Shown piece by piece: positions 23,971 to 64,000 of a DNA stretch of 64,000 bases; the stretch's first letter is position 1; every line of letters starts with the position of its first letter. The stretch comes from a virus, in the IMG/VR virus record IMGVR_UViG_3300049979_000188, one strand, 5' to 3'. The translations under genes were made by a program, and so were the position numbers. The notes beneath the pieces were generated by a model. It had not been told where the DNA came from and did not search any database. It was given only the letters and a program-made list of their open reading frames with translations.

Positions 23971-23995
23971 ACGCTAAAAGTCACTAAGCTGTTAC
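23966..23995 (-). promoter_or_regulatory. promoter motif GTAAC-N17-CGTAAA
   Basis: -35 overlaps TAA; -10 abuts terminator arm. Confidence 0.7.
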
Positions 23996-25143
23996 CGTTT
24001 TTTGGTTTGCTGGATGTAGAGTTCCAGCAAAGTGGTGTTCTGGTAGAGGTAGAACTCCAGGCGCATGGTGAGCAGCAATTGCTCGATGAAATCGGCGTCT
24101 ACCTTATCGGGTAACTCAGACGCCGCAAACAAGGCCTTGATGAGTGGTATCTCTGCTTCGGCATGGGTTAGCAGCGTCTGCAAGTCAACCTCGCCACGGC
24201 GAATAGCCAGTAGCTCCTCCCGGTTAGGGCGCCGTACGTGTAAGCCTTGGCCAGCGGCCACTTCGCGCGCAATATCGAGCAGACGACGGCAGTGCATCAT
24301 GTTTTTTCCGTCAATTTGCTGCCCATGCGTGCTGGTTTCCACGTAACGGGCTTTATTTCGCTTGGCCAACCACTGCTCGTACTGCTTGTACTTGGTGCAG
24401 TGCTGCGAGTACGCATCCTTGTCGTAGCTCATAAAGCGAATCGGGGTGCGTCCTTCCGGAATGGAAGCCGAGCGCAAATCATTAGACGTCAACTGCTCAT
24501 TCAGTAAACCAGGCAGGCTAAAGGTTGGGTTGTTGTAGCTGTAGTAGAGGGCATAGAGATTGCGCATCTTCGGCACCGGCACTACCCCAAAATTACGTTG
24601 ACTCACACCAGGCTGCGTTAGACCCAAACGGTCAATAAAATGCAACAGTGGCTCCGAACCACCCTCCGCCCGGGCTACGCGACAAAAGTCAAGGGGCGTT
24701 TTGCGGGTCATTTGCTCTTTCTCCTGGTTCATGAGCTTATTCAAGCCCTTAGCCTTGGTGATTTGCTCATCGGCGTAGCCGGCCAGCGAGTTAGCCAGTC
24801 GCTTGGTGAGAAACTTTTCCACGTGGGTCAGTACCAGGTTGTAGACCGGGTGCATGTGTAAGATGACGTCCTCGGGCATAGCCAGTAGCTCCAGTACCGT
24901 GGGGTTACCCACCCCCAGCAGGGCCAGGAACTTACCCAGTTCGTAGCCCGTCACATCGTTGGTATCGTTGTTGATGATTTCCTGCCGCGTCAAGCCCAGC
25001 ATATCGGGTAGGGGCAGTACGTAGATGTAGCGAATGTCGGTGTCGCTCGTCTCGATGGCCGTGCCGTAGGCCCGCGAACCAGCGACGCATTCAAAAATAA
25101 TGTGGCCACCGGCCTTCAGGGTTTCGTACGTCCAGGTTTGCAT
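23992..25143 (-). CDS. Pol-beta superfamily nucleotidyltransferase (Nuc-transf / RlaP-like)
   Basis: VAGSRAYGTAIETSDTDIRYIY (GS...DxD), GNPTVLELL, C-terminal KNMMHCRRLL...LLAIRRG...LPDKVD. Confidence 0.85.
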   Translation of the reverse strand: MQTWTYETLKAGGHIIFECVAGSRAYGTAIETSDTDIRYIYVLPLPDMLGLTRQEIINNDTNDVTGYELGKFLALLGVGNPTVLELLAMPEDVILHMHPVYNLVLTHVEKFLTKRLANSLAGYADEQITKAKGLNKLMNQEKEQMTRKTPLDFCRVARAEGGSEPLLHFIDRLGLTQPGVSQRNFGVVPVPKMRNLYALYYSYNNPTFSLPGLLNEQLTSNDLRSASIPEGRTPIRFMSYDKDAYSQHCTKYKQYEQWLAKRNKARYVETSTHGQQIDGKNMMHCRRLLDIAREVAAGQGLHVRRPNREELLAIRRGEVDLQTLLTHAEAEIPLIKALFAASELPDKVDADFIEQLLLTMRLEFYLYQNTTLLELYIQQTKKR

Positions 25144-27755: not shown

Positions 27756-30434
27756 TTATGCGTGCTTACTCAGGTAGTGCTTAGCCAGCGCCTGCATCCG
27801 GCTCTCGTCGCTGTACTGGTCCGCCGCTTCTTTCAAGGGGTCCACAATGCCGTGGGACTGGCTCGATTTTAAACCCAGTAGGTTAATGATAACCGGGTCC
27901 GAGCCGCTCTCCGACACCAGGTATATGGCCATTACCTGGTCTACTTGGCCGTCGCGGTCGATACGGCCCACTAATTGGTCGTGCACCTGGGGACTCCAAT
28001 CAAGCTCCCCAATGACAATGGTCTTGCAGATTTTCTGCAACCCATCCAGGCCGGCCCCCGAGCGCAGTGAAATTAAAAAGAGCTTGGTACGTCCCTCGAT
28101 AAAGGCCGTTTTAGCGTCGTGCTTCTGCTTTTCGCTCTCCGTGCCGCTGTACATGACCGGGTTATACTCAGCCAGCTCCTTGCGGACAATATCGTAACAG
28201 TTATGTACGACAGTTAAATCATCTAATAGAAATAGATGGTCGCCATCAGTTTCGAAACCATAATAAGTATCAACACCTATCGGTTCAATTCTAAGACCAG
28301 TCCTTAATACAGACTTAATTTGTCTGCGTACGTCAGGTTTTTTACGCTTCACACGGACCGTAAGCGCAGTTAAATCCCCTGAGATACGCACCGTGTGATA
28401 TACCTGAGCTGTATTATCGTAGGGTGTAGTTCTAGTGTAAGTCTTTAGGTAAGCCGCCAGGCCTAAAGACTTACATAAACGTGTGACATCTTCTGCCAAT
28501 TTTTTCGATTTATTGACAAAATCAGCACCCATAGCATTCCGATAAACATGCCCATCGGAATCAATTAAACCGCTTAGTAATTCCCAGCGCTCCGTAAGAC
28601 TTGCTGTTTGATAACAATGCGGAATATGCTTGTTATCAGCCAGTGACAGCGAGCGAAAATGACGTACCAACTTATTACGCGTTTTAACCCCTGTTGCGCC
28701 AGATGTTAAGTCATAAAAATAACAGCTATCACCATTAATGGTCTTGGTTGCTTTCACGCTAAGTGACCAGCGGTTTGCAATTAACTCAAGTTCGTCTCTT
28801 ATTTCAACGTCAGCTGAACACAAACGCATGGTGCGTAAATCTGAGGCGCCATCACCAAGCCAGAATCCTAATAACCAAGGTTCAACAACGGATTCCTGTT
28901 CAGGGTATACAAGAGCGTCAGCCCGATACAGTGTATAACTTTTTTGTTGCGAGGGATTCAAAGAATAAAAATCTCTCGCCGTCATAGTTTTGTAACCAGA
29001 CTTATTCTTATGTAGTGTTAGGATGTGACCGCTACTACACACCCAAGGCTCACCTTTCTTAGGTATGATTCTGAACATATCACCCACACCTAAGAAAGAC
29101 GAACGCACTTTCCTGGGTTTTGAATCAGGACCCATGAGTAAATCACCAGCTTTGACATTTTCGACGTTTAGAAAACTACCGTCGAAAGCGAGTACTTTGG
29201 TCCCTTTCCCAAAGCAATCCCGGTGCCAGAGGCCCAGTACCACTGGCTCGTCGGCTTCGAGCAGAATACGCACGTAATCGGCAATGGCCCGCGCCTTGGA
29301 TATGCCCGTGGTGTAGCGCGCGAGCATATCGAGCTCCTGGGCGGCCTGGCCCCGTTCAATAAAGGAGCCCGTCGTGACGCGCTGAGCTAGTTCGCGGGCC
29401 CGCTGCTCGCTTTTCTTGACTTCCTTCTCGTCGTACTCCACATAGTGGATAATGGTATTGATGGCGGGCAGCTCCCGGCCAACCTCCTGACGGGTACGCC
29501 GCAAAAAGAGGTGATTTTCCCGCAAAAAAGTCCCGAGGGCCTTTGGGTCGACCACCTTGTGGTTACGCCCGTAGGGCACGCACCATTCGCGTAGAAAATT
29601 ATCGCGCGTATCGAGGCAATCCGGGTTAATCAAGTCCAACACGTTGAACATCTCGTCGCCGTAATTGAAGATGGGCGTGGCCGAGAGGGCGCAGGTATAC
29701 TCGACGGAAGTAGAGAGGCACTTGCCCCCGGCGTACTTGGCGCTGGTGTAGTTGCGCAGCTCCTGAATCTCGTCAAAGATGGCCGAGCGAAAGAAGTTGG
29801 TCTTGAAAAAGACGCTCCAGCCCGCTAGCTGCGTGTACTTGAAAATGTAGACGTCAGCCTTGGGTAAGGTATAAGGCGTCGTCTTTTTGATGATGTGCAC
29901 CGTCAAATTGGTGAACTTCTCAATGACTTCCTCTTTCCACTGGCGCGTCATGTGGGTCTGCACGACGATGGCCACCGGCAAGGTACCCGGGGTAAAGAGG
30001 GTAAGCGTGGCCGAGAGGCTCTTGCCCAAGCCCAAGTCGTCACCGAGTAGCAACCGCTTTTGGCGGGCATGCAAGGGTGGAAACTGCAGTTGGTAGGGCC
30101 GCGCGGCGTAGCCGGGATTGAGCGTAATGGCCGGCGCCTGGTAATGGGGCGTCAGAATAGCTTCGAGCTCGTTAATATTGTCCTCGTACGCCTGGGCCTG
30201 CGCCGCTAAGACCTGCCGGTCGGCCTCGTCAATGCGCAAATGATAGCGCGAGCTGAACCAGAGTAAATCGGCGCTGTTCTGCGGCGTATCGGGAAAGCTA
30301 AAGGGAGGTACCGCCCCCTTGGGGATGCGCGGGAAGATGTTTTTGAGTTTGATGCTGACGTGGGGCTCGCACTGGGTTATGACGTAGCGCTTACGCGAGG
30401 CATCGTGCACGAGGGCACCGTAGGTTTTAGGCAT
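27756..30434 (-). CDS. SNF2-family helicase interrupted by an intein
   Basis: LLGDDLGLGKS (motif I), IFDEIQELR (II), LSATPI (III), SLRSGAGLDGLQ...ELDWSP..HDQLVGRIDRDGQ (V-VI). Confidence 0.92.
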   Translation of the reverse strand: MPKTYGALVHDASRKRYVITQCEPHVSIKLKNIFPRIPKGAVPPFSFPDTPQNSADLLWFSSRYHLRIDEADRQVLAAQAQAYEDNINELEAILTPHYQAPAITLNPGYAARPYQLQFPPLHARQKRLLLGDDLGLGKSLSATLTLFTPGTLPVAIVVQTHMTRQWKEEVIEKFTNLTVHIIKKTTPYTLPKADVYIFKYTQLAGWSVFFKTNFFRSAIFDEIQELRNYTSAKYAGGKCLSTSVEYTCALSATPIFNYGDEMFNVLDLINPDCLDTRDNFLREWCVPYGRNHKVVDPKALGTFLRENHLFLRRTRQEVGRELPAINTIIHYVEYDEKEVKKSEQRARELAQRVTTGSFIERGQAAQELDMLARYTTGISKARAIADYVRILLEADEPVVLGLWHRDCFGKGTKVLAFDGSFLNVENVKAGDLLMGPDSKPRKVRSSFLGVGDMFRIIPKKGEPWVCSSGHILTLHKNKSGYKTMTARDFYSLNPSQQKSYTLYRADALVYPEQESVVEPWLLGFWLGDGASDLRTMRLCSADVEIRDELELIANRWSLSVKATKTINGDSCYFYDLTSGATGVKTRNKLVRHFRSLSLADNKHIPHCYQTASLTERWELLSGLIDSDGHVYRNAMGADFVNKSKKLAEDVTRLCKSLGLAAYLKTYTRTTPYDNTAQVYHTVRISGDLTALTVRVKRKKPDVRRQIKSVLRTGLRIEPIGVDTYYGFETDGDHLFLLDDLTVVHNCYDIVRKELAEYNPVMYSGTESEKQKHDAKTAFIEGRTKLFLISLRSGAGLDGLQKICKTIVIGELDWSPQVHDQLVGRIDRDGQVDQVMAIYLVSESGSDPVIINLLGLKSSQSHGIVDPLKEAADQYSDESRMQALAKHYLSKHA
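28200..29216 (-). mobile_element. Intein with LAGLIDADG homing endonuclease (339 aa)
   Basis: Starts CFGKGTKVLAFDG after LWHRD; ends VVHN before +1 Cys; WLLGFWLGDG and LLSGLIDSDG motifs; visibly more AT-rich than flanks. Confidence 0.93.
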
Positions 30435-43993: not shown

Positions 43994-45550
43994 TTAGTTT
44001 TCAGGTTGAAGAGCTTGTAAACGGGTTAGTTCTGCGAGGGCTTGTGTATGAAAGGCAGGGTCCGTATCAGCGTGATACGCCACGTTGGCTTGCCAAACCG
44101 CGAGTGAAAAAGCCATCGGCTCGCTAATTGACGCCCGGTAATAGGGGCAAACGTAGGGGTAGACGTAGGGAACCCGGGTGCGCACCTTGACGGAGTCCAT
44201 ATCGCCCTTTTCCACGACGAGTCCCCCAAAGGGGGCCCCCAGGATAAAGTCACGCGCATCGAGTACTTCCGTATCGGAACCTGATTCAACCAGGGCCCAA
44301 GTCTTGCCGATGGTGACGCCACCCTTCGCCAGGGCCTCGGTGACGAACCGGAAGGTCGCCCCGCCTTGCACATCGTCATCAAATAAGTCGTAGCTACCGG
44401 GGGGAATCTGCGCGCCCCAGCGCACGTACTCTTCGACCGTGCAGGTAGCGTGCATTTCAGGTCGCACCCCGAAGCTAAGAAAGCGCAGGCCAAAGGTATC
44501 GTAGACCCGGCTTACGGCAAAGACATGGTCCGCCTTATTAGGTGGGTCACTTCTCACGTAAGGGTCCAGGCTAATGAGGGGTTCGCGGCGTCCGTACAGG
44601 GGCCCAAAAGGGGAAGGGTGGTCTACGCTGGGACGACGGCGACGCGCAAAGTCGAGTTGCTGCTCCTGCAGTCGCACTACCTGAACTTCGTCAAAGTAGG
44701 GACGCAGCAGTTCCACGAAGGGCAGCTCCCGCTCCTGCGTTACCCGTACCACAAGCTTGCGCGGGGTAGGTGGGTACGTAAAAGCTTGGCGCAGCTGGGT
44801 GGAAGAAAGACTGCTGGTGTTTACGGCTTCGAGAATCACACTCGGATAGGGGCCGTCGAGTAAGGAGCCTACGTTAGGGCCGTGGTAGTGCTGCTGCAGG
44901 GCCCGCACCTCGGCCATGGCCTGGCCATACATGGCTTCGTAGCCAGGCCGGCTTACCACGACCGCCTGGCCGTGGTGGGCAAAGGCGTTGGCAAAGCGGG
45001 CGTTATCACCGCCACAGACGTAAAAAACGGGTACGTGGTGGCCCGTGCGCAACTGTACGTAGCGTTCGAGTCGCATAACCAACTCCGTAAAATTAAGCGA
45101 GCCCGGGGCAAATACCCCAGCCCAGGGGTCTACATTAAGCCAGGGCTCAAACTTGGTAGCATCGGCCAGCAGGCGAATACGCTGGTGAATGGGCAAGGCT
45201 TGCTCACCGAGCTTGTAGCGGATGTACTCGTCGTGGTCGGGCGCCAGAAAGCCCCCTACGCAGGTATAACCAGCCGCGTTCACCGCATCGCGCGCTACGC
45301 GCATCATTTGCAGGTGACCCTCGTGCACGGGGTTAAACGAGCCCGTCCCCAGTACGATGGCCGGCCGCTTGGCCTGGGCTAACTGCTCGCGTACGTAGCT
45401 CAGGGGGGTGCAGTCCAGCGCCAGGCTTTGCGGAATGTTGAGCGGACTGGCAAGCGAATCAGTAAAGAAGCCAGCCTGCGCAATACCGGCCTCCCCAAGC
45501 TCCCCGACGACGGTGCTAAAGAAAGGGTCCTGGGCGATTTTGTGGTTCAT
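43994..45550 (-). CDS. HxGH nucleotidyltransferase (NadD/NMNAT-like) fused to a type I PRTase-like domain
   Basis: GTGSFNPVHEGH, YVCGGDN...VVVSRPG, SLSSTQLR; C-terminal YDLFDDDVQGGATF resembles the PRPP-binding loop; start refined to MNHKIAQ. Confidence 0.8.
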   Translation of the reverse strand: MNHKIAQDPFFSTVVGELGEAGIAQAGFFTDSLASPLNIPQSLALDCTPLSYVREQLAQAKRPAIVLGTGSFNPVHEGHLQMMRVARDAVNAAGYTCVGGFLAPDHDEYIRYKLGEQALPIHQRIRLLADATKFEPWLNVDPWAGVFAPGSLNFTELVMRLERYVQLRTGHHVPVFYVCGGDNARFANAFAHHGQAVVVSRPGYEAMYGQAMAEVRALQQHYHGPNVGSLLDGPYPSVILEAVNTSSLSSTQLRQAFTYPPTPRKLVVRVTQERELPFVELLRPYFDEVQVVRLQEQQLDFARRRRPSVDHPSPFGPLYGRREPLISLDPYVRSDPPNKADHVFAVSRVYDTFGLRFLSFGVRPEMHATCTVEEYVRWGAQIPPGSYDLFDDDVQGGATFRFVTEALAKGGVTIGKTWALVESGSDTEVLDARDFILGAPFGGLVVEKGDMDSVKVRTRVPYVYPYVCPYYRASISEPMAFSLAVWQANVAYHADTDPAFHTQALAELTRLQALQPEN

Positions 45551-45804
45551 GATGTAGCGAGTAAGCAGGTAAGAAGTAGATGCAGAAACTTGACCACCAG
45601 AAAGTAAGGCCAGAATAAGACAACCACTACCTGACTTATCAGGTAAGATAGTAGCAAGGCCCACTCGGGCGCGGGTAGGGCCAGTTTCTCTACGAAGTGG
45701 GTCCAGAGCGACGTGCGGTACGCCACGTAATGGCAGGCCGGTAAGACGACCAGGGCGTAGTAGAGGCCAGCTACTAGCCAGTAGGTGAACACAGTTGTTA
45801 CCAT
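45547..45804 (-). CDS. small two-TM membrane protein
   Basis: Hydrophobic segments, VVLFWPYFL. Confidence 0.5.
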   Translation of the reverse strand: MVTTVFTYWLVAGLYYALVVLPACHYVAYRTSLWTHFVEKLALPAPEWALLLSYLISQVVVVLFWPYFLVVKFLHLLLTCLLATS

Positions 45805-46007
45805 GCGATGACATTCCCTTCGAGCCACTCGTAAACACTGTCTCGCCAGCCCGTGTCATTCATGCCGTACGCCTGGGCATCGTAGCGCAGGGCAGCGGGG
45901 AGCTGGTCAAAAATACGCTGCAGCTCACGGGGGGAATAGCTATCGCCCGTGGCATCGACCAGTACATCGTGGAAGTGGTCCCAGTCGTTTCTTGTGAATT
46001 CAGCCAT
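45798..46007 (-). CDS. small hypothetical protein
   Basis: ...AQAYGMNDTGWRDSVYEWL; start refined. Confidence 0.5.
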   Translation of the reverse strand: MAEFTRNDWDHFHDVLVDATGDSYSPRELQRIFDQLPAALRYDAQAYGMNDTGWRDSVYEWLEGNVIAW

Positions 46008-53010: not shown

Positions 53011-53666
53011 CTGCATGCTATTCCGGTCACAGGAACCCGGCGCGTGAGCGGGCGGAATGCACGGCCGGGTCGAAAGCCGGTAGTTAGTTAAGCCAAGCGC
53101 TAAAGTACGTTTCACTGGAGGCTTCGCTGAACTCGAAGCTTTCTACCTGACGGGCAAACCGCCGGGTCACAGCTACACCGACCAGTGTCCGTTCCCCCCG
53201 CCCTGGTCGGTACAACTGGGGGTGCACGGGATTTCAAAGGGGTCTCTCGCTCCCCTATCCAGCAATCAAACCAGCGACTACACCCCCTTATGGGATAAAC
53301 GTACGCTACAGTCCGACTGGTCGAGCTGCGCTTTTTTCGCCGCGTAGCCTGCTAAAAGCCACCCCTACGGGCAGTCACATAGGCGTCCTTGACGCTAACC
53401 CGGTCAAGGAGTAACCGATTTCCCACCTCGGTTGGGGACGGTTTGGATTGCCTGTTACCAGCCTCGGGTCGTCGTACCCCATGCACTTGCTGTCACCAGC
53501 GTTCATCGACTGCGCGTTCCAAGCAACAGGCCGACTTCGGTAGATATGTCACGCAGCCACCTCACCCATGCGCGGAGATGGTTCCCGATTTAAGCTGACC
53601 TGTGTACGGAGACCAGCTGCGTGTCTTGCCCTGTCCGTTCACCCAGCGGTAGTGGACGACGGGGGA
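53011..53666 (-). ncRNA. Candidate large structured ncRNA (~650 nt)
   Basis: No plausible protein ORF in a gene-dense genome; many inverted repeats; ends at terminator 52968-53010; strand inferred from the upstream promoter. Confidence 0.5.
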
Positions 53667-54065: not shown

Positions 54066-54938
54066 CTAGTCCAGAATAAGCCAATCGGTGGCCAGCCAGT
54101 CTGCCTGGTAGGGTTGCGCCGCTTCCATAGTCCCGTTTTTGAGCACGGCCACCACAAAATTTACCCCCATGGCAATGCCCGAAACCGGTAGGTTATCTAC
54201 GGCAAGCACCTCGCTTACTGTGGGAACGAAGACGGCGCTGTCAGTAAGCAGCCAGTAGCCATCCCAGTGCAGACGTGCAATGCGCTTGCCTCGTTTGAGG
54301 GCCTCGATGGCCGCCCCGAAGGAATATAAGCGCTGGTCAGGCCGCCAGTTAATACTCTCCCGGCGCTCTAAGTCAGCGGGTTCTGCAGCTGGCGCTGGTT
54401 GGCGTTCCGGAGCAAAAGGCAAGTCAAAGGCCGCATCACTGCCGTAGGAGGTTCCGTCGTCGTACCAGCGGCGCGTGCGGTAGGCATTCGCGCGCCACAC
54501 GTCCCCGATAATACCGGCCCAGCTTCCGTCCGGGTACACGGCGTAGCTTAACTCATGGGCCTTGAGCTTATGCCCGCCCTTGGTGCGCTCAACTTTGCCC
54601 AGGTCGTGTTTGAGGCGACTCTTACGGTAGACCTGGTACTCGGCCTCCCCGCCCTTGATAAAGTACTTCCCAAAGTCCCCTTCCGAGAAGAAATGACTGC
54701 TGGCCCCGGACCCATCCGGGTTACGTCGCACCACCGAATAGGCAATGCGTCCGTCACCCTGGGGGGTCACGTAAGCTTCGCACGCATCGCCTACGAAGAA
54801 CCTGTTCCAATCGTTAGAGGCAACTTCGTCACACTCGCCCATGAAATGGCTGGGATGGGGTTCGCGCACGCACATGCAGTTGAGGAGTACGCTCTGGGTT
54901 GGCACATCTTGGGTGTGCTTGAGGTCTGAGTTTTCCAC
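54066..54938 (-). CDS. Multi-domain protein with C-terminal DUF2829 / Tad2-like domain
   Basis: SFGAAIEALKRGKRIARLHW...PYQADWLATDW. Confidence 0.75.
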   Translation of the reverse strand: MENSDLKHTQDVPTQSVLLNCMCVREPHPSHFMGECDEVASNDWNRFFVGDACEAYVTPQGDGRIAYSVVRRNPDGSGASSHFFSEGDFGKYFIKGGEAEYQVYRKSRLKHDLGKVERTKGGHKLKAHELSYAVYPDGSWAGIIGDVWRANAYRTRRWYDDGTSYGSDAAFDLPFAPERQPAPAAEPADLERRESINWRPDQRLYSFGAAIEALKRGKRIARLHWDGYWLLTDSAVFVPTVSEVLAVDNLPVSGIAMGVNFVVAVLKNGTMEAAQPYQADWLATDWLILD

Positions 54939-55338: not shown

Positions 55339-55451
55339 GCCGGGTGCCGGGAGTCGAACCCGGACGTCAGGTTGCAACCCTGACCGGAGCGCGTTTGCGA
55401 GGTAAGCCTCCGGCGTCTGCATCACTGCGCACCAATTTCGCCACACCCGGC
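55339..55451 (-). ncRNA. tRNA-scaffold RNA A (Leu-type body; 12-nt D-loop insert, 18-nt anticodon loop, G-1:C73)
   Basis: (G)CCGGGTG/CACCCGG(C); GCGAAATTGGT-[GCGCAGTGATGC]-AGACGC; CGGAG/CTCCG stem; GTCAGG/CCTGAC variable arm; CCGGG-TTCGACT-CCCGG. Confidence 0.8.
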
Positions 55452-55458
55452 TTTTTCG

Positions 55459-55770
55459 TTACCCTGGCGCAGGCGCTTCGGGTAGGGGTGTGATAATAAC
55501 TTGTCCCGTTAGCAGGATACGCCTGCCGCTATCCAGGTCAAAAAACGTATAGTGGACATTATCGGGCGCGAGGGTGACTTCGCCCTGGGCGAGGTAGGTC
55601 CGAAAGACCAGGCCATTCTGGATGAGCTCGACGCACGTACGCTTGCGTGCATTACGTGCCCGCTCCCGGGCATCGAGCTGTATTACCACAAAGGCCGAGA
55701 CGAGCAGCGCGCCCATTGTGGTAGCGAAATAGATGGCGTCGTAAAAGAGCGAATCAGGTTGGTAGCCCAT
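55459..55770 (-). CDS. small membrane protein
   Basis: One N-terminal TM segment. Confidence 0.55.
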   Translation of the reverse strand: MGYQPDSLFYDAIYFATTMGALLVSAFVVIQLDARERARNARKRTCVELIQNGLVFRTYLAQGEVTLAPDNVHYTFFDLDSGRRILLTGQVIITPLPEAPAPG

Positions 55771-55771
55771 T

Positions 55772-56431
55772 TTAACTGGGTGAAAACTGGTAGTCCGGAT
55801 GGAAGTTCAACCGAATCAGGGTCCGCTCCACGGGACCCGCGATAGGCAGACTCTCGTGAATGCCGAGTGAATTGAGAAAGTAGACTTCGTTGGCCGGCAT
55901 CACGTGCGTGGCCAGGTGGTCGGTGCTGATTGCCGCGCAGCAGCCCCCGGGTCCGAACTCGCCGTCGTATTCCCCCTCGTAAACCTGGCAGCCGGCCACA
56001 TTGGAGACCAGCAGCATACCACCAGGCTCCAGTCCCGGCTTCCAGTAACCACCGGTCTGCGCCCAGTTGCGCGGCATACGATGCTGGCCGGCCGGTGCCG
56101 GGCGATGTGAGCCACCGGGAGTGGGACAGGGTGTGGCGATATGCGAGCCCTGGGCCACGTGCATGCCCGGGGTTTCGTACCAGTTGTAATCCACATGCTT
56201 GCCCCCGCGCCGGTGGGTCGTGTTAATGATACGCTTCTCGTCGATGGTGACGTAGCCCACAGCGTTGCGGGCACTGACCTGCGTGAGCATCTGCTCCAGT
56301 ACGGGTACGTAATCAGCAAAGCCTTCGGGCAGCTGCAGCGTGTCGAGCCCCACGCGGTGCATGTAGAGACTACGCTGCGCAAAGGCTGGCATGGCGCGGA
56401 TTTGACCGACGGGCTGGGCGACACTAAGCAT
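55772..56431 (-). CDS. Putative 2OG-Fe(II) dioxygenase
   Basis: HRRGGKHVD (HxD), distal LGIHES (H), RTLIRL (R). Confidence 0.65.
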   Translation of the reverse strand: MLSVAQPVGQIRAMPAFAQRSLYMHRVGLDTLQLPEGFADYVPVLEQMLTQVSARNAVGYVTIDEKRIINTTHRRGGKHVDYNWYETPGMHVAQGSHIATPCPTPGGSHRPAPAGQHRMPRNWAQTGGYWKPGLEPGGMLLVSNVAGCQVYEGEYDGEFGPGGCCAAISTDHLATHVMPANEVYFLNSLGIHESLPIAGPVERTLIRLNFHPDYQFSPS

Positions 56432-56454
56432 ACAAAAAAGGGCTGATTTTAGCT

Positions 56455-56484
56455 AGTTTACGGGTATACGCAGTACTGCGTTAC
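56455..56484 (-). promoter_or_regulatory. promoter motif GTAAC-N17-CGTAAACT
   Basis: Spacer contains palindrome CGCAGTACTGCG. Confidence 0.8.
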
Positions 56485-56492
56485 GCCCTGAG

Positions 56493-57020
56493 TTAGTAAG
56501 CCCAGTTATGGGTAACAATAGCAGGGATACCTAACTTAGCAAGTAACAAATCCAGGGTTTCCTTGTCGAGCCGGCCGTACTGAGTCAGCTCTTCTCCGTC
56601 CACAATAAGGTCCGTGCCCGTGGTATAACAGCACCCATCGCCGCAAGTGTGGTCCCATTCACGAATGGTAATACGATGAGGCTTTTTCGAATCCACAAGG
56701 GGATACGGCTTTTGGGTTTGAATTTTACCGGGGCCGAGCCAATAAATAATTGGCAGACTACCCGTCTCGTAATCGAGAGTGTCTGCTATGGTTAGCAGTA
56801 GACTCTCATCAGCAAAAGCAGCCTCGAATTGGGCAACGGTGTCGTAGACGAAGTTGTCCCAACTTTGAGTGCCCACATACAGCTGCTCAGCTGTATCAAC
56901 TGCTTCCACAATATGGGTTTTGGTCGACTGGTCGTAGGTATACTTGAATTGCAGCTTGGGGTGCTCAACTAGTTGAGCATCAAGTAAGGCAATGAGGTAC
57001 TTCTCAGCTTCCTCGTTCAT
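56493..57020 (-). CDS. hypothetical protein
   Basis: 175-aa ORF between RNA genes. Confidence 0.6.
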   Translation of the reverse strand: MNEEAEKYLIALLDAQLVEHPKLQFKYTYDQSTKTHIVEAVDTAEQLYVGTQSWDNFVYDTVAQFEAAFADESLLLTIADTLDYETGSLPIIYWLGPGKIQTQKPYPLVDSKKPHRITIREWDHTCGDGCCYTTGTDLIVDGEELTQYGRLDKETLDLLLAKLGIPAIVTHNWAY

Positions 57021-57037
57021 AGTAGGTAAAAAGTATG

Positions 57038-57110
57038 TCGGGGTACTCGGGCTCGAACCGAGGACCTCTCCCTCATGAGGGGAGCGCTCTACCAGCTGAG
57101 CTAAGGAGGC
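57038..57110 (-). pseudogene. tRNA(CAT)-like gene with unpaired acceptor stem
   Basis: Perfect D, anticodon (CTCCC-CT-CAT-GA-GGGAG) and T arms, but 5' GCCTCCT cannot pair with 3' TACCCCG. Confidence 0.75.
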
Positions 57111-57116
57111 AAAATT

Positions 57117-57335
57117 TTACTTACCGTAGATGGTTGTCTTGCGGCCGTCTACCCAGTACGTGGTGCTTACGCTGTCCTGCTGGGTACTGTCCGCTTCAAT
57201 CGGGTAGTTGAGGCCTTGCTGATAAAGGGTTACGGCTCGACGCTTGCCAAAACGGGTCCCACTACCCAATGAGAAAAAATAAAGCACCAGCAGGGTTAGA
57301 ATCAGTGCTAACAATAGGGTACGTTTGTTTTCCAT
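57117..57335 (-). CDS. small membrane-anchored protein
   Basis: N-terminal hydrophobic helix; start refined. Confidence 0.45.
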   Translation of the reverse strand: MENKRTLLLALILTLLVLYFFSLGSGTRFGKRRAVTLYQQGLNYPIEADSTQQDSVSTTYWVDGRKTTIYGK

Positions 57336-57365
57336 TGAGAAAGAATAAATAACTTGAAAGTCAGC

Positions 57366-57435
57366 GTAGCGGTCTTCCATGGTTGAACCTGGGAAGAGAT
57401 TCTGCCGCCTGGCTCTACCGCTGAGCATCCCGTGC
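57366..57435 (-). pseudogene. degenerate tRNA remnant
   Basis: GCTC-AGCGGTA-GAGC D arm and GGTTCAACC T-loop remnant; other stems broken. Confidence 0.45.
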
Positions 57436-57513
57436 AACCGTACAACTGGTCAGGCAGGCGAGGGGTAACCTCCCGCCGACGTACGACTTGGCGGGGTTTT
57501 CCATTCAAGTTTT

Positions 57514-57846
57514 CTACTTAATCCACTCCGCCAGACCTGCTTCCATCGCTTCAGCGATGGTGTGCGTGGGATTAGCCTGCAAATCCTTCATAGCCCAAAG
57601 CAATACTTCTGCCTCCAGCTTAAAGGCGCGGGCCTCCGTAAGGCCATTGTCAATGGCGGCAAGCTCTTGCTCAACCGGCACCTGATTCGAGGAGGGGTTT
57701 GCCGCACAAAAAGCTTCGTGGGTGAGGTTGCGCCCCGTCTCAGGGTCGAAGCCGGTGCCCCAAAAATCAGGTGCGCCGGGCAGCGCTGAGTTAAAAAGTG
57801 TTTTGGAATCACCTGAGCTCAGGTGGTCGTTGCGGTAAGTTTCCAT
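57514..57846 (-). CDS. hypothetical protein
   Basis: ...LEAEVLLWAMKDLQANP..TIAEAMEAGLAEWIK. Confidence 0.6.
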   Translation of the reverse strand: METYRNDHLSSGDSKTLFNSALPGAPDFWGTGFDPETGRNLTHEAFCAANPSSNQVPVEQELAAIDNGLTEARAFKLEAEVLLWAMKDLQANPTHTIAEAMEAGLAEWIK

Positions 57847-57860
57847 GATGAAAAATAAGG

Positions 57861-57962
57861 TGGCGCAGACAAGTGGACTCGAACCACCGACCTCCTACCG
57901 TACCGTTGAAGAATTGAACTCCGGGGCCAATGCAGGCGCTCTACCGACTGAGCTACGTCTAC
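57861..57962 (-). ncRNA. tRNA-scaffold RNA B (33-nt anticodon loop containing a second T-loop-like hairpin; CCA encoded)
   Basis: GTAGACG/TGTCTGC-G-CCA; GCTC-AGTCGGTA-GAGC; CCTGC/GTAGG; GGTGG-TTCGAGT-CCACT. Confidence 0.85.
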
Positions 57963-58166
57963 TTACGTGCGGCTTACGTTTACCGCGAGAACACTTCCAC
58001 AGTTCCCCGACCTATCCGTTGAGGCGTTTGCATCCCTTGCCCAAGCAACCCAGGCCTTGGCTACTTGCACTTCGTGTGTATTGCACGCCCTCACCTAGCA
58101 CATTTTTCGGAAAAACAAGCGGCACGTGACCTCCGCCCCCCTCAGTTAGAACTGGATAAACTGATG

Positions 58167-58239
58167 CACACGAGATAGGGTTCGAACCTATGACCTGCGG
58201 TTTTGGAGACCGCCGCTCTACCAGCTGAGCTACCCGTGT
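58167..58239 (-). tRNA. trnW: tRNA-Trp(CCA)
   Basis: Full cloverleaf ACACGGG/CTCGTGT, GCGGT-CT-CCA-AA-ACCGC, T loop TTCGAAC. Confidence 0.93.
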
Positions 58240-58694
58240 AAATGTACTGGTGGACTTATCAAGGGTTCGTCCATGAGCCAGCCAGTACCCCGTAAAACTT
58301 GTCATCCTCCACGGTGAGGGTATTTCTTCGCACTAGTCAGGCTGTTCTTCCCCGTTTAGAAGGTCAATCGCGCATCACTGCGGGACGGCCTTCCGTTGGC
58401 CTCGAACCAACTGAATTTACTGGCGCCTTACTCAGGCTACCTACCTGTTCTCTGCCTTAGGTTACCCCAACCCTTGTCGTGAGTTGCCCGGGTGGGTGAC
58501 CCGTACCCGTGCTCGAAGGAGTCACAAACATACGGGCGCCAGCCAAGACGCAACTCAGTGTCCAAGTGCTAAGATAGCTTACCAGCCCTCTCGGCGGTAG
58601 CGTAAAGGTAGTCGGGCGTGAACTGCGAGGCGCAAGGCCAGCAAATCCAGTTCACGTAACTACCTGGTAGGGTTTGCCTACCGTAAAGTTGTAC

Positions 58695-58952
58695 TTACCT
58701 ATCAGCGAGACTATGCTTGGTAAGGGCTAGAAAGTTACCTAGCTCCTCGAAAAACTCCTCGCCGGCCAAGGCAAGTTGAGCCGTAGCATCCCCCATGGTA
58801 GCTCCTCGGGCATGAAGCAAGCGCACGGGAGTCTCTCCCACCAGTGTCAGAATAGCCACAAAGGGCTGCTCAACTGAGTCGTTCATGTTATAGCAAGTAA
58901 CACTGAAGGGGGAGACAGCAGGGGCCGTCAACGTAGGAAGCGGGAGTGTCAT
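58695..58952 (-). CDS. hypothetical protein (HicB-like fold possible)
   Basis: ..ARGATMGDATAQLALA pattern. Confidence 0.45.
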   Translation of the reverse strand: MTLPLPTLTAPAVSPFSVTCYNMNDSVEQPFVAILTLVGETPVRLLHARGATMGDATAQLALAGEEFFEELGNFLALTKHSLADR

Positions 58953-58968
58953 AAAGGAAAAGTAAGTG

Positions 58969-59054
58969 TACGGATGAAGGGAATCGAACCCTCAAGCCCG
59001 GTCAAGGGCCAACACAGTTTAAGTATGTCGTGTATCCCATTCCACCACACCCGC
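58969..59054 (-). tRNA. trnL: tRNA-Leu(TAA)
   Basis: Class II cloverleaf; ACATA-CT-TAA-AC-TGTGT; long variable arm; TTCGATT. Confidence 0.9.
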
Positions 59055-59058
59055 ATAG

Positions 59059-59217
59059 AGACAGTAGCTGGAGTCGAACCAGCGGCAAGTACCCAGGGGA
59101 CAGGTTTTATTTACTCCTCTTGTTGCCCGGCTTGCGGCCCGGCTCAAAGGTCCCCCTAAGCTGGATACCAGGTGCATCCTGACCCTCCCGCGGACTAGTC
59201 TGGGGTGTCATACTGCC
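59059..59217 (-). ncRNA. tRNA-scaffold RNA C (acceptor stem plus T arm enclosing a ~127-nt structured core)
   Basis: GGCAGTA/TACTGTC; GCTGG-TTCGACT-CCAGC; internal stems GGGGAC/GTCCCC and GGATGC/GTATCC. Confidence 0.7.
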
Positions 59218-59237
59218 AGGTTAAGCGCGTGCCCGCG

Positions 59238-59582
59238 CTAGTTCTTTGTCGCGACGAGTTGCTCGGCTAGCAGCTCCGCAACTTGTCGCAATGTATTGAG
59301 TGGCACAAAATTGTAGTCAAGCACGTTTCGCAATGCCCGGGCCAGTTTAACACGGTCCCACTCATCGAGTATTTCTTGCTCTGTAAGGTGAAGGCGAAAA
59401 TGACCGTGCTCCGTTTTCATTGTGGTTAGCAAGTAGCGCTCGCCCGGCTGTTCTACCAGGGTAAAGTACTTAGTGCCCACCGTTGCAACGGTAAACTCGT
59501 CGATTTCCCGCTCCTTAACTGGCCCGCGACTACGAAGTGCCTCGCGGTAGAGGGTCTGACCCTTTACAAGTTTTGCTGCCAT
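59238..59582 (-). CDS. beta-barrel-like phage hypothetical protein
   Basis: LVKGQTLY...TVATVGTKYFTL. Confidence 0.6.
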   Translation of the reverse strand: MAAKLVKGQTLYREALRSRGPVKEREIDEFTVATVGTKYFTLVEQPGERYLLTTMKTEHGHFRLHLTEQEILDEWDRVKLARALRNVLDYNFVPLNTLRQVAELLAEQLVATKN

Positions 59583-59722
59583 CGCGACTGATTAATAAAG
59601 GTAATAGTAGACGGGGGCGTCCCCCCTGCAAAAAGCGCATTTACAATTTATGCTATGGCCCGGACCCTGGGTTGTACCAGCGGTGTTATACTCCGCATCA
59701 TTCTTTCCGCAAATCTACTAAG

Positions 59723-59800
59723 CGGTCCCTACCGGGGTCGAACCGGTCTGATAACTCCCGTGACAGGGGAGTAGCCACGCCTACCGCAGCCCCAGGGACC
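59723..59800 (-). tRNA. trnD: tRNA-Asp(GTC)
   Basis: GGTCCCT/AGGGACC, CTCCC-CT-GTC-AC-GGGAG, TTCGACC; G73. Confidence 0.88.
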
Positions 59801-60053
59801 AGAATTGCCCGGAATTTGACCAGTAACCTCCCACACCGGGCTGGTGGGTTATCGCCTGGCACCCACATGAAGGGCTAGTCAAGGTCTTCCCCTTGCGTCG
59901 TCCCGTTATACCTCAATTGGCGAGGGTAGTGCCTGCATCTAAGAGCGCCATGGCGGAGTGTCTACGGGAACACTCACTTCAAGAGGGTGACCAGTTATAC
60001 GATACTAGTCGAAAACGCCGTGCCTCCAGGCTTACTGCTTAAACAGAAGGATT

Positions 60054-60281
60054 CTATTCCGTAAAGACCAGTGTGTCATGTTCATTGACCACCGTGGGCG
60101 GGTATTCGCCAGGAGCACACACGTAGGGCAGCTCATTCCAGGGGGTCTGGCCATCACCCACTTTGAGTTGCCGCGTCGTTTCGTCGTAGGCCGGCTCGCG
60201 TAGGCCCAGAATCGGGTTTACTTGCTGCCAGTTTTCGCTGCTGTCGCCACGTAGGCGAATGCGCGTGGGGGTGTCATCCAT
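60054..60281 (-). CDS. Stand-alone Mtd_N / hyaluronidase N-terminal-like domain
   Basis: RIRLRGDSSENWQQVNPIL...EPAYDETTRQLKVGDGQTPWNELPY. Confidence 0.8.
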   Translation of the reverse strand: MDDTPTRIRLRGDSSENWQQVNPILGLREPAYDETTRQLKVGDGQTPWNELPYVCAPGEYPPTVVNEHDTLVFTE

Positions 60282-60529
60282 GGTCGTAGAAGTTAAGTGG
60301 TTGAAGGAGGGAAAACTAGTACGGTATCACCCACTACTAGAATTACAGGGTCATCGTTGACCGTCGTTTTAGGTTTATCAGTCATGGGCAAACTTACAGT
60401 ACCTACTTAAAAGGTGCCCAAGCCGAGTACAGACTAGCGCGTAATGGCTGGCCTTGCGAGCCTTGCCGACGAACCAGTCACTGGAATCGAACCGTAAAGT
60501 ACTTCACTGACTTTCGGCCGGCTTGGGTA

Positions 60530-60605
60530 TGGAGCGAGAGAACGGGTTCGAACCGTCGACCTGCTGCTTGGAAGGCAGCCGCTCTACCAACTGAGCTACT
60601 CTCGC
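60530..60605 (-). tRNA. trnG: tRNA-Gly(TCC), CCA encoded
   Basis: GCGAGAG/CTCTCGC, GCTGC-CT-TCC-AA-GCAGC, T73-CCA. Confidence 0.95.
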
Positions 60606-60850
60606 AAAGTGGACTGGACTTATTAGCTCCAGCCCCTCCGACTTGCGCAGTGTTGTTACGACCCCTTGACCCGGGCTACACGGTCAAGCCGTAACCAAGT
60701 GGGCTAGCACCACTTCACTGGGAGTCCGCATCGTCACCAGCACATACGTCCGGGAGAGGCTAGGCGGCGCACCGATTAGAAGAGGACCGATTCGACGGTC
60801 TCCCTGGGCCCAGGGACCACTGAGAAGAGCTACTTTACGCCGCGCTTATA

Positions 60851-60874
60851 CCATTGTCTGGTACCAGACAATGG
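60851..60874. repeat. perfect 24-bp palindrome
   Basis: CCATTGTCTGGTACCAGACAATGG. Confidence 0.9.
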
Positions 60875-60925
60875 AGCTACGTTGACTCTTGTTCAGTGTG
60901 CTGGTCTATCCCAGCTGCTCTTTTG

Positions 60926-60997
60926 GTCACAGAGATGGACTCGAACCACCGACCACCCTCCTTGCGGGGGTACTCTACCACCTGAGCTACCTGCAAC
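60926..60997 (-). ncRNA. tRNA-scaffold RNA D (anticodon loop replaced by GCAA tetraloop; G-1:C73)
   Basis: (G)TTGCAGG/TCTGTGA(C); GCTC-AGGTGGTA-GAGT; CCCCC-GCAA-GG-A-GGG; GGTGG-TTCGAGT-CCATC. Confidence 0.8.
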
Positions 60998-61145
60998 AAA
61001 CAAGGTTCTGTTAATCCAGTACCCACAACCGCTTCAAACGAGGCTCCCCGCTTACCTGGGAACCGGATGGGTAAGCATCCTGAGTTACGTTTTCTACTCA
61101 TTTACCGTAGGGTATTATGCTTGCGCAGCGGCTACCACGGTAAGT

Positions 61146-61268
61146 TAGGACGTAGGGGAATCGCACCCCTGCTTGGTTCAGCCTGGGCGCCTGCCCGGGG
61201 ATGGGCGCCGTCAAAGGCTTCTCTTACTCCTGGGATTTGGAGCGTGCTCTCTACTACACCAACGTCTT
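61146..61268 (-). ncRNA. tRNA-scaffold RNA E (8-nt anticodon loop, 55-nt variable-region insert)
   Basis: AAGACGT/ACGTCCT; GTGT..GCAC D stem; GCTCC-AAATCCCA-GGAGT; AGGGG-TGCGATT-CCCCT. Confidence 0.65.
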
Positions 61269-61371
61269 TTTATGGTGATAACTTGGTGTTGCTTACATAC
61301 CTTACCGGTCTGAATTCGAACCAGTTAAGTAATTTTGCCGACCTTTACGGGACAAACCACGTTACCACCTG

Positions 61372-61488
61372 AGCCAAGGGAAGGACTCGAACCTCCACAG
61401 CTGCTGAGAATCCTCTTAAGCAAGACCCCGTCGGGTTATTCACTTGCAGCTTATGTTGAATTTACGGTTTGCCATACCGAACCCTGAC
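61372..61488 (-). ncRNA. tRNA-scaffold RNA F (anticodon arm replaced by a branched ~65-nt domain)
   Basis: GTCAGGG/CCTTGGC; CGGT-ATGGCAA-ACCG; AGCTGC/GCAGCT closing a 41-nt loop; GGAGG-TTCGAGT-CCTTC. Confidence 0.75.
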
Positions 61489-61880
61489 TTGTTCTGGAAT
61501 TTGGCCGCGTATTCTGTTCTTTGCGACGGGTCTTAGTTCACGTATATTCCAGTTACCCAGCTGTCGAATCAAGGCGGCGTGCATCCCGCACACCTGATGT
61601 TCCCCGACCTTGTCCTGACACATCTTCGGACAAACAGAGACTCCAGCTCATAAGGGTCGGCCTGCCAGCTCAGGTATGCCCCAGGCCTTCGCATGCAAAC
61701 CAAACCCTTACCTCAGTACCCGACAGCTTGATTTACATCAGGGGCTGCCGGGAATAGGCGTTGAAAAAGTAACCGGTGGGTTGCAAATTAACCGATTTTC
61801 CTAGTCCCCCCACCTACTACCGTGCAACTAGTAGTAGGAATCTCGCGGTATCAGAAGATGCTGCCATCACTTTTTCATCG

Positions 61881-61953
<73 letters not shown>

Positions 61954-62384
61954 TTGTGTAAGTTCTACTACTTTTACGCAGCCTCAAAAGTTCACCAGAA
62001 CTAGTAAATCTTTAAGGCTGCGTAGGCATAGTGGGTGCTGCTGAGGACTTTCACCTTCTTTTCCTTTAGCTACCAGGTGGGGCGTACCCTTTACCAGGCT
62101 CCTCCCCTCGATTTCCCGTCTCGAAGGGCCGGCAGCACAATGCATGTGCGTCGACTGACATTAGCACTGCGTAGGAACGGCTAGTAACCGTACGCGCAGT
62201 CAGTTGAAGTGTCCACCGTTACCGGCGACTCACAAAAAGTTTGAGGGCGTACGTGCGGTACGCAACCACGCGGGATTTTTACCCGCCAAGGCGACTGACC
62301 CTGAGCCACTACAGCTCAATTGGTTGTGCTCTCTTCAAGCCACTATTACCTAATCGCCCCGGTGTTCGTTCCACTGCCTCAAGT

Positions 62385-62520
62385 CAATTCGGGATGGCTT
62401 TGAACCATCGCCCTACCAGGGATAAGCTGGTAGTACCCGTTTTCAGCTTGAAGTATCACCTTCAGACTGGGGGTGTCGCAGGCCTTGAGCCCGCCGCTCT
62501 GACCACTGAGCTACCGAATG
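62385..62520 (-). ncRNA. tRNA-scaffold RNA G (CAA anticodon arm retained, 68-nt multi-hairpin variable region)
   Basis: CATTCGG/CCGAATT; GCTC-AGTGGTCA-GAGC; GCGGG-CTCAAGG-CCTGC; TGAAG/CTTCA and CTACCAG/CTGGTAG hairpins; GATGG-TTCAAAG-CCATC. Confidence 0.75.
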
Positions 62521-62599
62521 ATTTTTTGAAAGAGCTTGTCTTTCATCCTTTTGCCAACAAGTCAAAGACCTTTGCGACTTCAACCTGCTGCCGAAGTAC

Positions 62600-63235
62600 C
62601 TAGTTTACGCTATTTGGGACCGGCCCGTTACCACTTTTGGTAGAAAAAGTGCGCTCGAAGTTGTTTTCGTGCGTACTAGCGGGCGGAATCAGCCCGAATC
62701 TAGCTTCCAGTGGGGGGTGCGCCAAAAGACGGTCCTCGTAGAGTGACACGGGCACCCCATGCTGCGTGATGACCTTGTAAAGAAAGTTACCGCGATGAAA
62801 TTCTCGGTCATCGACTGTGGCACTCACGTAAGTCTCGTCCGCAATGCGGGCAATCACGTACTGGTTAAGTCCGTAGAGAGGACCCGGGAGGTCTTCATTC
62901 TCCTTACTTTTGAGTGGCTCAGGCTCAGCTATCTGATAAGAGCGGCGCCGGGTAACGCGCTGGGTCGGCACTTGGATGAGTTGCAACCCATCCTGGGTGA
63001 TGAGGTCATAATGCCAGCCACTGGCATTAAGCCCGCTCAGAAAGACGGCATCTTTGACCATGCCGTATACATATTGTGCATTCGGACTGTCAAGGGAACC
63101 TAACCGAATAATGACAAAAGCGCCCTTACCCAAGGGTGCGACGCTTGCGTCTAAATCAGTTACAAGGACAGGGTCACCCGGCCCATTCGGGTGCCAGGGA
63201 TTGCGGGTATCGTCGAGCGTTGCTTTTTCAAACAT
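62600..63235 (-). CDS. hypothetical protein, possibly two SH3-like barrels
   Basis: Two similar units ending HYDLITQDG and LYKVITQHG. Confidence 0.6.
   Translation of the reverse strand: MFEKATLDDTRNPWHPNGPGDPVLVTDLDASVAPLGKGAFVIIRLGSLDSPNAQYVYGMVKDAVFLSGLNASGWHYDLITQDGLQLIQVPTQRVTRRRSYQIAEPEPLKSKENEDLPGPLYGLNQYVIARIADETYVSATVDDREFHRGNFLYKVITQHGVPVSLYEDRLLAHPPLEARFGLIPPASTHENNFERTFSTKSGNGPVPNSVN
62602..62631 (-). promoter_or_regulatory. promoter motif GTAAC-N17-CGTAAACT
   Basis: At 3' end of CDS, pointing into the tRNA/tRNA-like cluster. Confidence 0.8.
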
Positions 63236-63253
63236 GAGACAAAATTGAATCGG

Positions 63254-63442
63254 TTAAGCAGGCAATAAGTTAAGCTCACGTGCGAGCGCATCCTGCAGCA
63301 GGCGTCCAAGACGCAAACGAGCTGGCTCATCGAGGTTGTTAGCCTCGGCCGAGAAGCGAAGCTCGACCAGGGGGCCCTCGTCGTGGAGGTCAACGATACT
63401 TACGCTGCCATTGACGTGCAACTGAGTGGTGATTTCAAGCAT
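63254..63442 (-). CDS. small hypothetical protein
   Basis: ORF between tRNA-like gene and next CDS. Confidence 0.45.
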   Translation of the reverse strand: MLEITTQLHVNGSVSIVDLHDEGPLVELRFSAEANNLDEPARLRLGRLLQDALARELNLLPA

Positions 63443-63473
63443 AAGGGGTTAGGGCTGGTTGTAAAAAAAAGTG

Positions 63474-63586
63474 GTACGGCGGTAGGACTCGAACCTACAA
63501 CCCTCCAGGGTCGGGCCTGATGCGCATCTCGGTTATCCATCTGAAGGGCCCAGTCAAGGGTGGTTGCCGATTTCACGACACCGTAC
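63474..63586 (-). ncRNA. tRNA-scaffold RNA H (50-nt anticodon-loop insert; G-1:C73)
   Basis: (G)TACGGTG/CGCCGTA(C); GTGA-AATCGGCAA-CCAC; inner GGGCC/GGCCC stem; GTAGG-TTCGAGT-CCTAC. Confidence 0.8.
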
Positions 63587-63647
63587 TTTTCCACCCGGTC
63601 CATGTGTCGCCGGGGTACCATAGAAGCCCACTACGAGCTTCACTAGT

Positions 63648-63828
63648 CGAGGATGTCAGGAGTTGAACCTGAATGGACGAGCCCTGGGCAACTAGGGCAA
63701 TGTGTACACCAACTACCGTACCCTGCCGCAGGAGTCATTGTCCGGAAGCTCTTTTTACGTCCCCACCCCGTGTACAAAGCGGAGGCGCTACTTCGAACTT
63801 CTGTGTCTACCAATTCCACCACATCCCT
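63648..63828 (-). ncRNA. tRNA-scaffold RNA I (Leu-type D arm and variable arm; ~105-nt domain replacing the anticodon arm)
   Basis: AGGGATG/CATCCTC; GTGGAATTGGTAGACAC; TGTACAC/GTGTACA inner stem; GCCCTAG-TTGC-CCAGGGC; TCAGG-TTCAACT-CCTGA. Confidence 0.8.
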
Positions 63829-64000
63829 AGAAGAAAATACCTACTAATCACTTACTTACTACTGTCGCCAGCGCCGGCGCTGGCTGAGTAGCCTCCGCCT
63901 GCAGTAACCTGGTCATCCGGCAGTAGTTGGTTACAATGCGATAAAAACTAGCCAGATGATGCAGCGTGTGCACCTCAGCTCGCGCTAAACCTTCGCCCGT

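Follow-up and report, generated by a model that had tools for sequence, protein, structure and literature searches.

Non-decoding RNAs of tRNA shape are familiar from bacteriophage T5, where RNA1, RNA2 and RNA3 and the stable RNAI, RNAIII and RNAIV (NC_005859, T5s01-T5s07) comprise tRNA-shaped RNAs as well as closed RNAs of ~100 nt, all lying among tRNAs. The tRNA-like members retain a T arm and an acceptor-like stem, and their function is unassigned in the annotation; RNA1 and RNA2 carry large inserts, RNA3 has no D arm, and these RNAs end in an encoded CCA or NCA. Some of the stable RNAs directly abut tRNA-His and RNA1, without a gap. The 'tRNA1' species of Mukai et al. 2017 (PMC5389517) are irregular G-1 tRNAs embedded in polycistrons, for which a link to Acidobacteria and to toxin-antitoxin loci was drawn; their anticodon is still GGU, one of them has an 8/4 fold, and they are charged by E. 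coli HisRS while remaining unused in translation. In eukaryotes, mascRNA, cut from the 3' end of MALAT1 (PMC9976931), is a cloverleaf with no conserved anticodon loop that is excised by tRNA-processing enzymes and is inactive in aminoacylation. Some phages, moreover, encode tRNAs with an altered anticodon arm that escape anticodon nucleases (PMC11555353; also PMC10264068, as far as its citation in PMC12851939 describes them), and both sets still decode and refill the tRNA pool. In the maturation of bacterial tRNA-His, RNase P cuts the precursor at -2/-1, helped by U-2 and G-1 (PMC5499578).

Here, we analysed a window of 64,000 nucleotides—the whole stretch of viral DNA from IMG/VR record IMGVR_UViG_3300049979_000188, itself part of a phage of ~203 kb—and, within it, a 72-nt tRNA-shaped RNA gene termed element D (Table 1). 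The gene occupies positions 60926-60997 of the minus strand, running from G-1 (60997) and U1 (60996) to A72 (60927) and C73 (60926), exactly where an earlier note on this DNA had placed it; the D and T arms described there as intact proved to be so, with a D stem of 4 bp and a T stem of 5 bp, both without unpaired positions. The acceptor comprises 8 bp (G-1:C73, U1-A72, U2.G71, G3.U70, C4-G69, A5-U68, G6-C67 and G7.U66), and the 17 body pairs include 0 mismatches. Five of these pairs are G.U, three of them in the acceptor—a number seen in one family in 77 among ordinary tRNAs. The variable loop has 5 nt and, as read from the sequence, the tertiary core retains the complete set of class I tRNA bases (U8, A9, A14, G15:C48, G18, G19, A21, G46, U54-U55-C56 and A58). 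The 3' tail after C73 reads CAA, and a full CCA is not encoded. On the 5' side, the sequence ahead of G-1 is rich in U and contains no CCA.

The anticodon arm, in turn, measures 15 nt against the usual 17, leaving element D 2 nt shorter than a normal tRNA; the description of a normal-length body has to be corrected in this respect. Within the cloverleaf, the best fold of the arm is the GCAA-capped stem with a bulged A that the note had drawn, at -22.0 kcal/mol (-23.4 kcal/mol with A26-U44 added), and the alternatives reach -19.4 (same loop with a C.A mismatch), -18.9 (a loop of 5 nt) and -18.5 kcal/mol (the Leu-CAA fold of ARAGORN). With the other stems forced, the sealed fold accounts for ~73% of the ensemble and a slipped register for ~27%; the isolated arm has z = -3.8. 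The window contains 3 fully paired bodies of this form, and none turned up among 60 random sequences of 64 kb. The claim that normal decoding is impossible is borne out by the missing 7-nt loop, the missing U33 and the favoured sealed fold. The Rfam tRNA model (RF00005) matches at 60926-60996 with 32.1 bits and the loop unaligned (cut-off 29 bits; the match appears only in E-value mode): the acceptor, D and T stems and the invariant core bases are present, while the 5-bp anticodon stem with a 7-nt loop and U33 is not. No other Rfam family was reported at these positions to E = 10, lower-scoring overlaps of the tRNA clan being unlisted, and no clear promoter for the gene was found.

A short arm of this kind might also arise from a small deletion introduced by sequencing or assembly, a concern voiced in the earlier note and one to which we assign very little probability because Logan contig L181 (run SRR35533023) shows 100% identity to the window over 3,740 bp spanning element D. 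The phage is known from a single sample, and the L181 and JGI/IMG assemblies may derive from shared reads; on the other side, the proteins of the surrounding region are present also on a JGI/IMG contig of 202,851 bp, and adding back 2 nt would still yield no His anticodon.

As regards identity, element D shares with bacterial tRNA-His the encoded G-1 paired to C73, the U-2 and the 8-bp acceptor, and its U2 and G3 are those of phage His tRNAs; it differs in having neither a 7-nt loop nor a GUG anywhere in the anticodon arm, in U1-A72 for G1-C72 and in its three acceptor G.U pairs. Of the two identity elements put forward in the earlier note, the His-type end proved meaningful (see the survey below), whereas the alanine identity drawn from G3.U70 did not hold. 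The bacterial alanine set consists of A73, G2-C71, G3.U70, G4-C69 and G20 (PMC9976931), and only G3.U70 is matched by element D, with its C73, U2.G71, C4-G69 and U20; the closest look-alike, L056, has G3-C70. Other assignments were also rejected. An att-site (attP/attR) tRNA fragment is contradicted by the full-length body and by the lack of any integrase family among the scanned ORFs, and a tmRNA or YrlA Y RNA by RF00005 being the only family reported at 60926-60996. ARAGORN calls tRNA-Leu(CAA) after a one-base stem shift, and a reading of element D as an odd working decoder—this leucine tRNA or a frameshift tRNA—is highly improbable, since that fold is 3.5-4.9 kcal/mol worse than the sealed one and has G33 for U33, lacks base 26 and closes its loop with a C.A mismatch. 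Leucine tRNAs are recognised by A73, a long variable arm and a canonical loop, to which C73, the short variable loop and G33 stand opposed. Activation of RelA requires codon pairing, which element D cannot make.

Table 1. Features of element D and of the surrounding RNA island (window coordinates unless prefixed; strand and remarks as available)
Feature	Position	Strand	Remark
RNA island: ordinary tRNAs (Trp, Leu, Asp, Gly, Met), tRNA bodies with inserts, small ORFs	55339..64000	-	
tRNA bodies with large structured anticodon-region inserts	57864-57962, 62385-62520, 63474-63586, 63648-63828; L182:8834-8973, L182 ~8337-8503		
Sister tRNA body A, G-1:C73, non-canonical core	55339..55451	-	
Sister tRNA body H, G-1:C73, inserted core	63474..63586	-	
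~115-nt stem-closed RNA	60412-60527	-	No Rfam match
~98-nt stem-closed RNA	60825..60922	-	z = -4.3; starts 4 nt past C73 of element D
~100-nt stem-closed RNA upstream of element D	61273..61369	-	z = -4.3; ACCA end, internal T-loop-like hairpin
Element D, 72-nt tRNA-shaped RNA gene, G-1 to C73	60926..60997	-	Same sequence in Logan contig L181
Acceptor 5' strand, G-1 to G7	60990..60997	-	U-2 at 60998 precedes
D arm, 4 bp with G10.U25	60972..60987	-	Loop A14, G15, G18, G19, A21
Sealed 15-nt anticodon arm, 5-bp stem	60956..60970	-	Bulged A 60959, GCAA loop 60965-60962
T arm, 5 bp	60934..60950	-	Canonical T loop
Acceptor 3' strand	60923..60933	-	C73 60926, encoded C74 60925, then AA

Element D is thus a tRNA-shaped, non-decoding RNA within a phage tRNA cluster that holds other putative stable RNAs—the arrangement known from T5, although no T5 tRNA-like RNA combines a full body, a minimal sealed arm and G-1:C73. 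The island runs past the end of the window into L182, and its insert-bearing tRNA bodies carry 26 to ~100 nt in the anticodon region; one of them, at 57864-57962, has a second T-loop-like hairpin and an encoded CCA. The G-1:C73 pair occurs in three bodies of the island, all non-canonical (55339-55451, element D and 63474-63586), and in none of the parsed ordinary tRNAs, most of which (Met, Leu, Trp and Glu) encode only C74 without a full CCA. Between the bodies lie stem-closed RNAs of about 100-120 nt (z -3.1 to -4.3), the one after tRNA-Gly having the value of -3.1. The one that begins almost directly after element D contains a perfect 24-bp palindrome (60851-60874) and is a candidate cargo that 3' processing of element D would free. 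A perfect 16-bp palindrome was also observed at 60801-60816, downstream of the gene; both palindromes could form hairpins or support intermolecular pairing. The closed RNAs at 61273-61369 and 60412-60527, for which no Rfam match was obtained, are similar to T5 RNAI/III in size and layout. Elsewhere in the island, a tRNA with a CAU anticodon (57046-57110, minus strand) has unpaired acceptor strands and represents a broken or recombined gene, and the minus-strand ORF at 59238-59582 encodes a phage ProQ C-terminal-like protein (PF24203), a possible RNA binder; two homologues of this protein are surrounded by protein genes, outside RNA islands. At the far edge of the RNA region, ~600 nt of the minus strand (53020-53660) hold no convincing ORF and have a structured 3' end (z -4 to -6).

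We found no sister phage and no close database relative of the carrier of element D; the nine proteins looked up, eight of them from the island, were all singletons at 90%, a 211-aa island protein returned no homologue, and BLAST against cultured phages gave only generic tRNA matches. A search with its glutathionylspermidine synthase retrieved 80 loci, all distant. The Bacteroidota-type motif TAnnTTTG leans to the coding strand (23 vs 10) and is not enriched in total (33 vs 28 +/- 6). The window also encodes an RlaP-like nucleotidyltransferase (23992-25143), an NMN-adenylyltransferase-like protein (43994-45859; a cytidylyltransferase-like gene named from its homologues) and a Tad2-like domain (54066-54938), and Sir2 and NAD synthase families are among the scanned ORFs; judged by family membership, these genes look like an RNA-repair, NAD-restoring and anti-defence set. 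An SNF2-type helicase gene (27756-30434, minus strand) is split by an intein with a LAGLIDADG homing endonuclease. No PTH2-like gene (PF01981) was detected in five look-alike records or among the ~100 unbroken ORFs of at least 75 aa scanned in the window and L182, with ~130 kb of the phage lying outside these two sequences.

The closest counterpart of element D, L056, comes from a podovirus-like contig whose capsid is closest to that of a Bradyrhizobium phage. It too has 72 nt, a sealed arm and G-1:C73, and 52 of its 72 positions (72%) are identical to those of element D. Its acceptor has U1-A72, U2-A71 and G3-C70, its 6-bp GC arm is closed by CGAA, and two-sided changes separate it from element D at pairs 4:69, 5:68, 50:64 and 51:63. 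L056 is the reciprocal best match of element D among 337 tRNA-like sequences, the sole IMG/VR match to the acceptor-plus-D-arm pattern with arm length unrestricted and the sole match with the exact length plus G-1 and C73; because both patterns were built from element D and L056, this result speaks to the lack of any version with a normal loop among the matches and not to the independence of the match. Scans of metagenomes and genomes with a D-like arm pattern returned only the contig of L056 and one unrelated Ala-type element. Given that L056 has the U2-A71 and G3-C70 of phage His tRNAs, the G3.U70 of element D is best read, on comparison of the two acceptors, as wobble drift within a His-type stem. 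With no sister phage found, element D has no true orthologue, and the resemblance to L056 could be convergent.

To place this pair in a broader context, we surveyed IMG/VR with a pattern in which a short arm was required and only the D, variable and T loops were fixed. The 95 short-armed matches, pooled with other loci, collapsed into 33 families, of which 21 have an intact acceptor. Among these 21, G-1:C73 is present in five; of 71 ordinary tRNAs other than tRNA-His at the same loci, none has it (Fisher p = 0.0004; p = 0.002 when element D is left out), an enrichment that gives weight to the His-type end pointed out in the earlier note. All five C73 are paired with G-1 (p = 0.006). Of the 21 families, 16 retain C74 (p about 1e-6 against 0.25), and G3.U70 is rare, at 3/21 compared with 3/71 ordinary tRNAs (raw counts). 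These figures stem from a single narrow pattern with small counts, two or three of the 21 rows probably being mis-parsed ordinary tRNAs. Their loops read GCAA, CGAA, ACAC, UUCG or UAUA, or have 5-6 nt, and the GNRA loop of element D is no class feature: the class keeps a closed, non-decoding arm for which GNRA is not required. The excess of His-type ends and of C74 shows where the constraint lies, namely on the acceptor end. A search with model R1 found only bodies already known.

Further comparative evidence comes from a family of gut phages (17 contigs) in which the G-1...C73 acceptor and C74 are invariant and the short arm has 13 or 14 nt. One version of the arm still contains UUGUG, a trace that suggests an origin from tRNA-His. 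Between two alleles with 86-87% identity, whose downstream flanks share 95-99%, the acceptor is unchanged, and the changes in the arm and T stem are compensatory. The same phages carry a second body, from a family not selected for its end, in which G-1:C73 is fixed, the stem has 6 bp and the purine loop of 5 nt varies. In the complete 174-kb member G006, we found no ordinary tRNA-His among 24 tRNA matches; it has two G-1:C73 bodies unable to read His codons (L196:6559-6628 and L197:7127-7200) and a tmRNA. In another phage, a short-armed body with G-1:C73 lies 30 kb from the cluster that contains a normal tRNA-His, and such bodies can therefore be extra genes. We regard the gut-phage families as analogues of element D, homology being unproven. 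Other short-armed elements came to light alongside. The L005 family (55 loci) is an abundant tRNA-like element with the acceptor shifted into a long closing stem, probably not chargeable; a near-perfect tRNA-Ala body (G3.U70, A73) with the arm sealed by a cUUCGg tetraloop (L183:3465-3537 and L180:345-416) lies among cellular genes on a contig labelled as a Saccharibacteria MAG; and a phage locus retrieved through an unrelated protein (L149:13377-16794) holds three tRNA-like genes with no callable anticodon.

Taken together, the intact body, the sealed arm, G-1:C73 with C74, the dense RNA polycistron and the recurrence of the design in unrelated phages make it very probable that element D is a real, selected, non-decoding tRNA mimic. 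The three acceptor G.U pairs would also fit relaxed selection, and the competing account is of a decaying pseudogene in which an ordinary tRNA lost 2-3 nt of its loop: removing positions 32-34 of an Ala(UGC)-type loop leaves GCAA, the odds of obtaining a GNRA by such a deletion are by our own estimate roughly 1 in 7, the same island holds the broken CAU tRNA, about a third of the short-armed families have broken acceptors (12/33) and element D carries five G.U pairs and a bulge. We nonetheless consider decay improbable. A single deletion cannot explain the gene because neither an Ala- nor a Val-like loop agrees with its His-type end and the arm retains nothing of a GUG; the 17 body pairs have no mismatch, L056 preserves the length and design through compensatory changes, and two further non-canonical bodies of the island share the G-1:C73 pair that its ordinary tRNAs lack.

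As a stand-alone decoy, the mature RNA would absorb proteins of host defence that seize a tRNA by its acceptor stem, its T arm or its CCA end, with a sealed loop that anticodon nucleases could not cut; defence enzymes with such grips exist (PMC12851939), L056, followed by a terminator of its own, resembles an isolated gene, unrelated phages show the design again and the window holds counter-defence-type genes (Tad2-like, RlaP-like, NAD synthase and Sir2). We rate this role as possible but unlikely, as no partner was identified in the analysis, our literature search, though incomplete, found no published phage tRNA decoy of this kind, and the sealed loop may simply go unnoticed because the loop sequence that anticodon nucleases recognise extends past the anticodon (PMC12851939). 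The known nuclease-escaping phage tRNAs share with element D the phage origin, the altered anticodon arm and a plausible counter-defence setting; element D, however, cannot decode as they do. Even less probable is a charged, non-ribosomal tRNA, loaded with histidine by host HisRS and either donating the amino acid to a phage enzyme or sequestering HisRS or EF-Tu. In its favour, HisRS needs no more than G-1:C73 to charge mini- and microhelices (PMC9976931) and gives the anticodon little weight (PMC4357726), 'tRNA1' offers a precedent (PMC5389517)—albeit one with an anticodon, where element D has no anticodon loop and a 7/5 fold plus G-1—and C74 is kept across the short-armed class. Against it, the window and L182 yielded no aminoacyl-transferase, Pth2 or synthetase family, the His end occurs in just 5/21 short-armed families, and the HisRS of an alphaproteobacterial group does not use G-1:C73 (PMC9976931), an alphaproteobacterial host being possible for L056 in view of its capsid. 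A wider proposal joins both roles: phages would widely encode host-processed, histidylated, anticodon-sealed His-ended RNAs that never decode and serve as uncleavable decoys or as carriers of an amino acid against tRNA-targeting immunity, with element D and L056 as one family in very different phages. It, too, appears unlikely.

The role that we rank first, tentatively and at somewhat less than an even chance, is that of a handle for cleavage, by which the transcript would be punctuated and the neighbouring RNAs freed, because closed RNAs surround element D in its T5-like island and one of them starts right after it. Freeing pre-tRNAs from polycistrons is the essential job of RNase P in E. coli (PMC7049720), and both U-2 and G-1, which steer the enzyme, are present. 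In the proposed sequence of events, element D would be co-transcribed with the island; host RNase P would cut it at -2/-1 in the manner of tRNA-His; and the 3' end would be trimmed to C74 and the CCA then completed, as the neighbouring ordinary tRNAs need. The flanking RNAs would thereby be released, leaving a stable tRNA-shaped product unable to misread codons, which would act through its upper half, namely the acceptor stem and the D/T elbow. Host HisRS may charge this product—by our analysis with about even odds—with no delivery of histidine at a codon. The handle role takes mascRNA as its model, an RNA of unrelated, eukaryotic origin; element D differs from it in its full D arm and His-type end. 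Several points weigh against this role: L056 is followed directly 3' by a terminator-like hairpin with no cargo downstream, the spacer immediately upstream of element D is weakly structured (z = -1.5), and an ordinary tRNA would do equally well as a handle. The handle, decoy and charged-donor roles are not mutually exclusive.

Our literature search, incomplete as it is, found no description of sealed-anticodon, His-ended phage RNAs, and tRNA finders mislabel them: ARAGORN calls element D a leucine tRNA and the look-alikes Ser, Phe, Gly or '???'. What is new here is the counted enrichment of His-type ends and C74, a near twin in an unrelated phage and the evidence against alanine and GNRA readings. 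Element D represents the smallest possible case, a body with no cargo, and is therefore the cleanest substrate for establishing what the body alone does—whether it is cut by RNase P, accepts histidine or blocks defences that target tRNAs. The decoy role, if true, would constitute a new form of RNA-based counter-defence; the handle role, if true, would mean that phages use a mascRNA-like punctuation of their transcripts.
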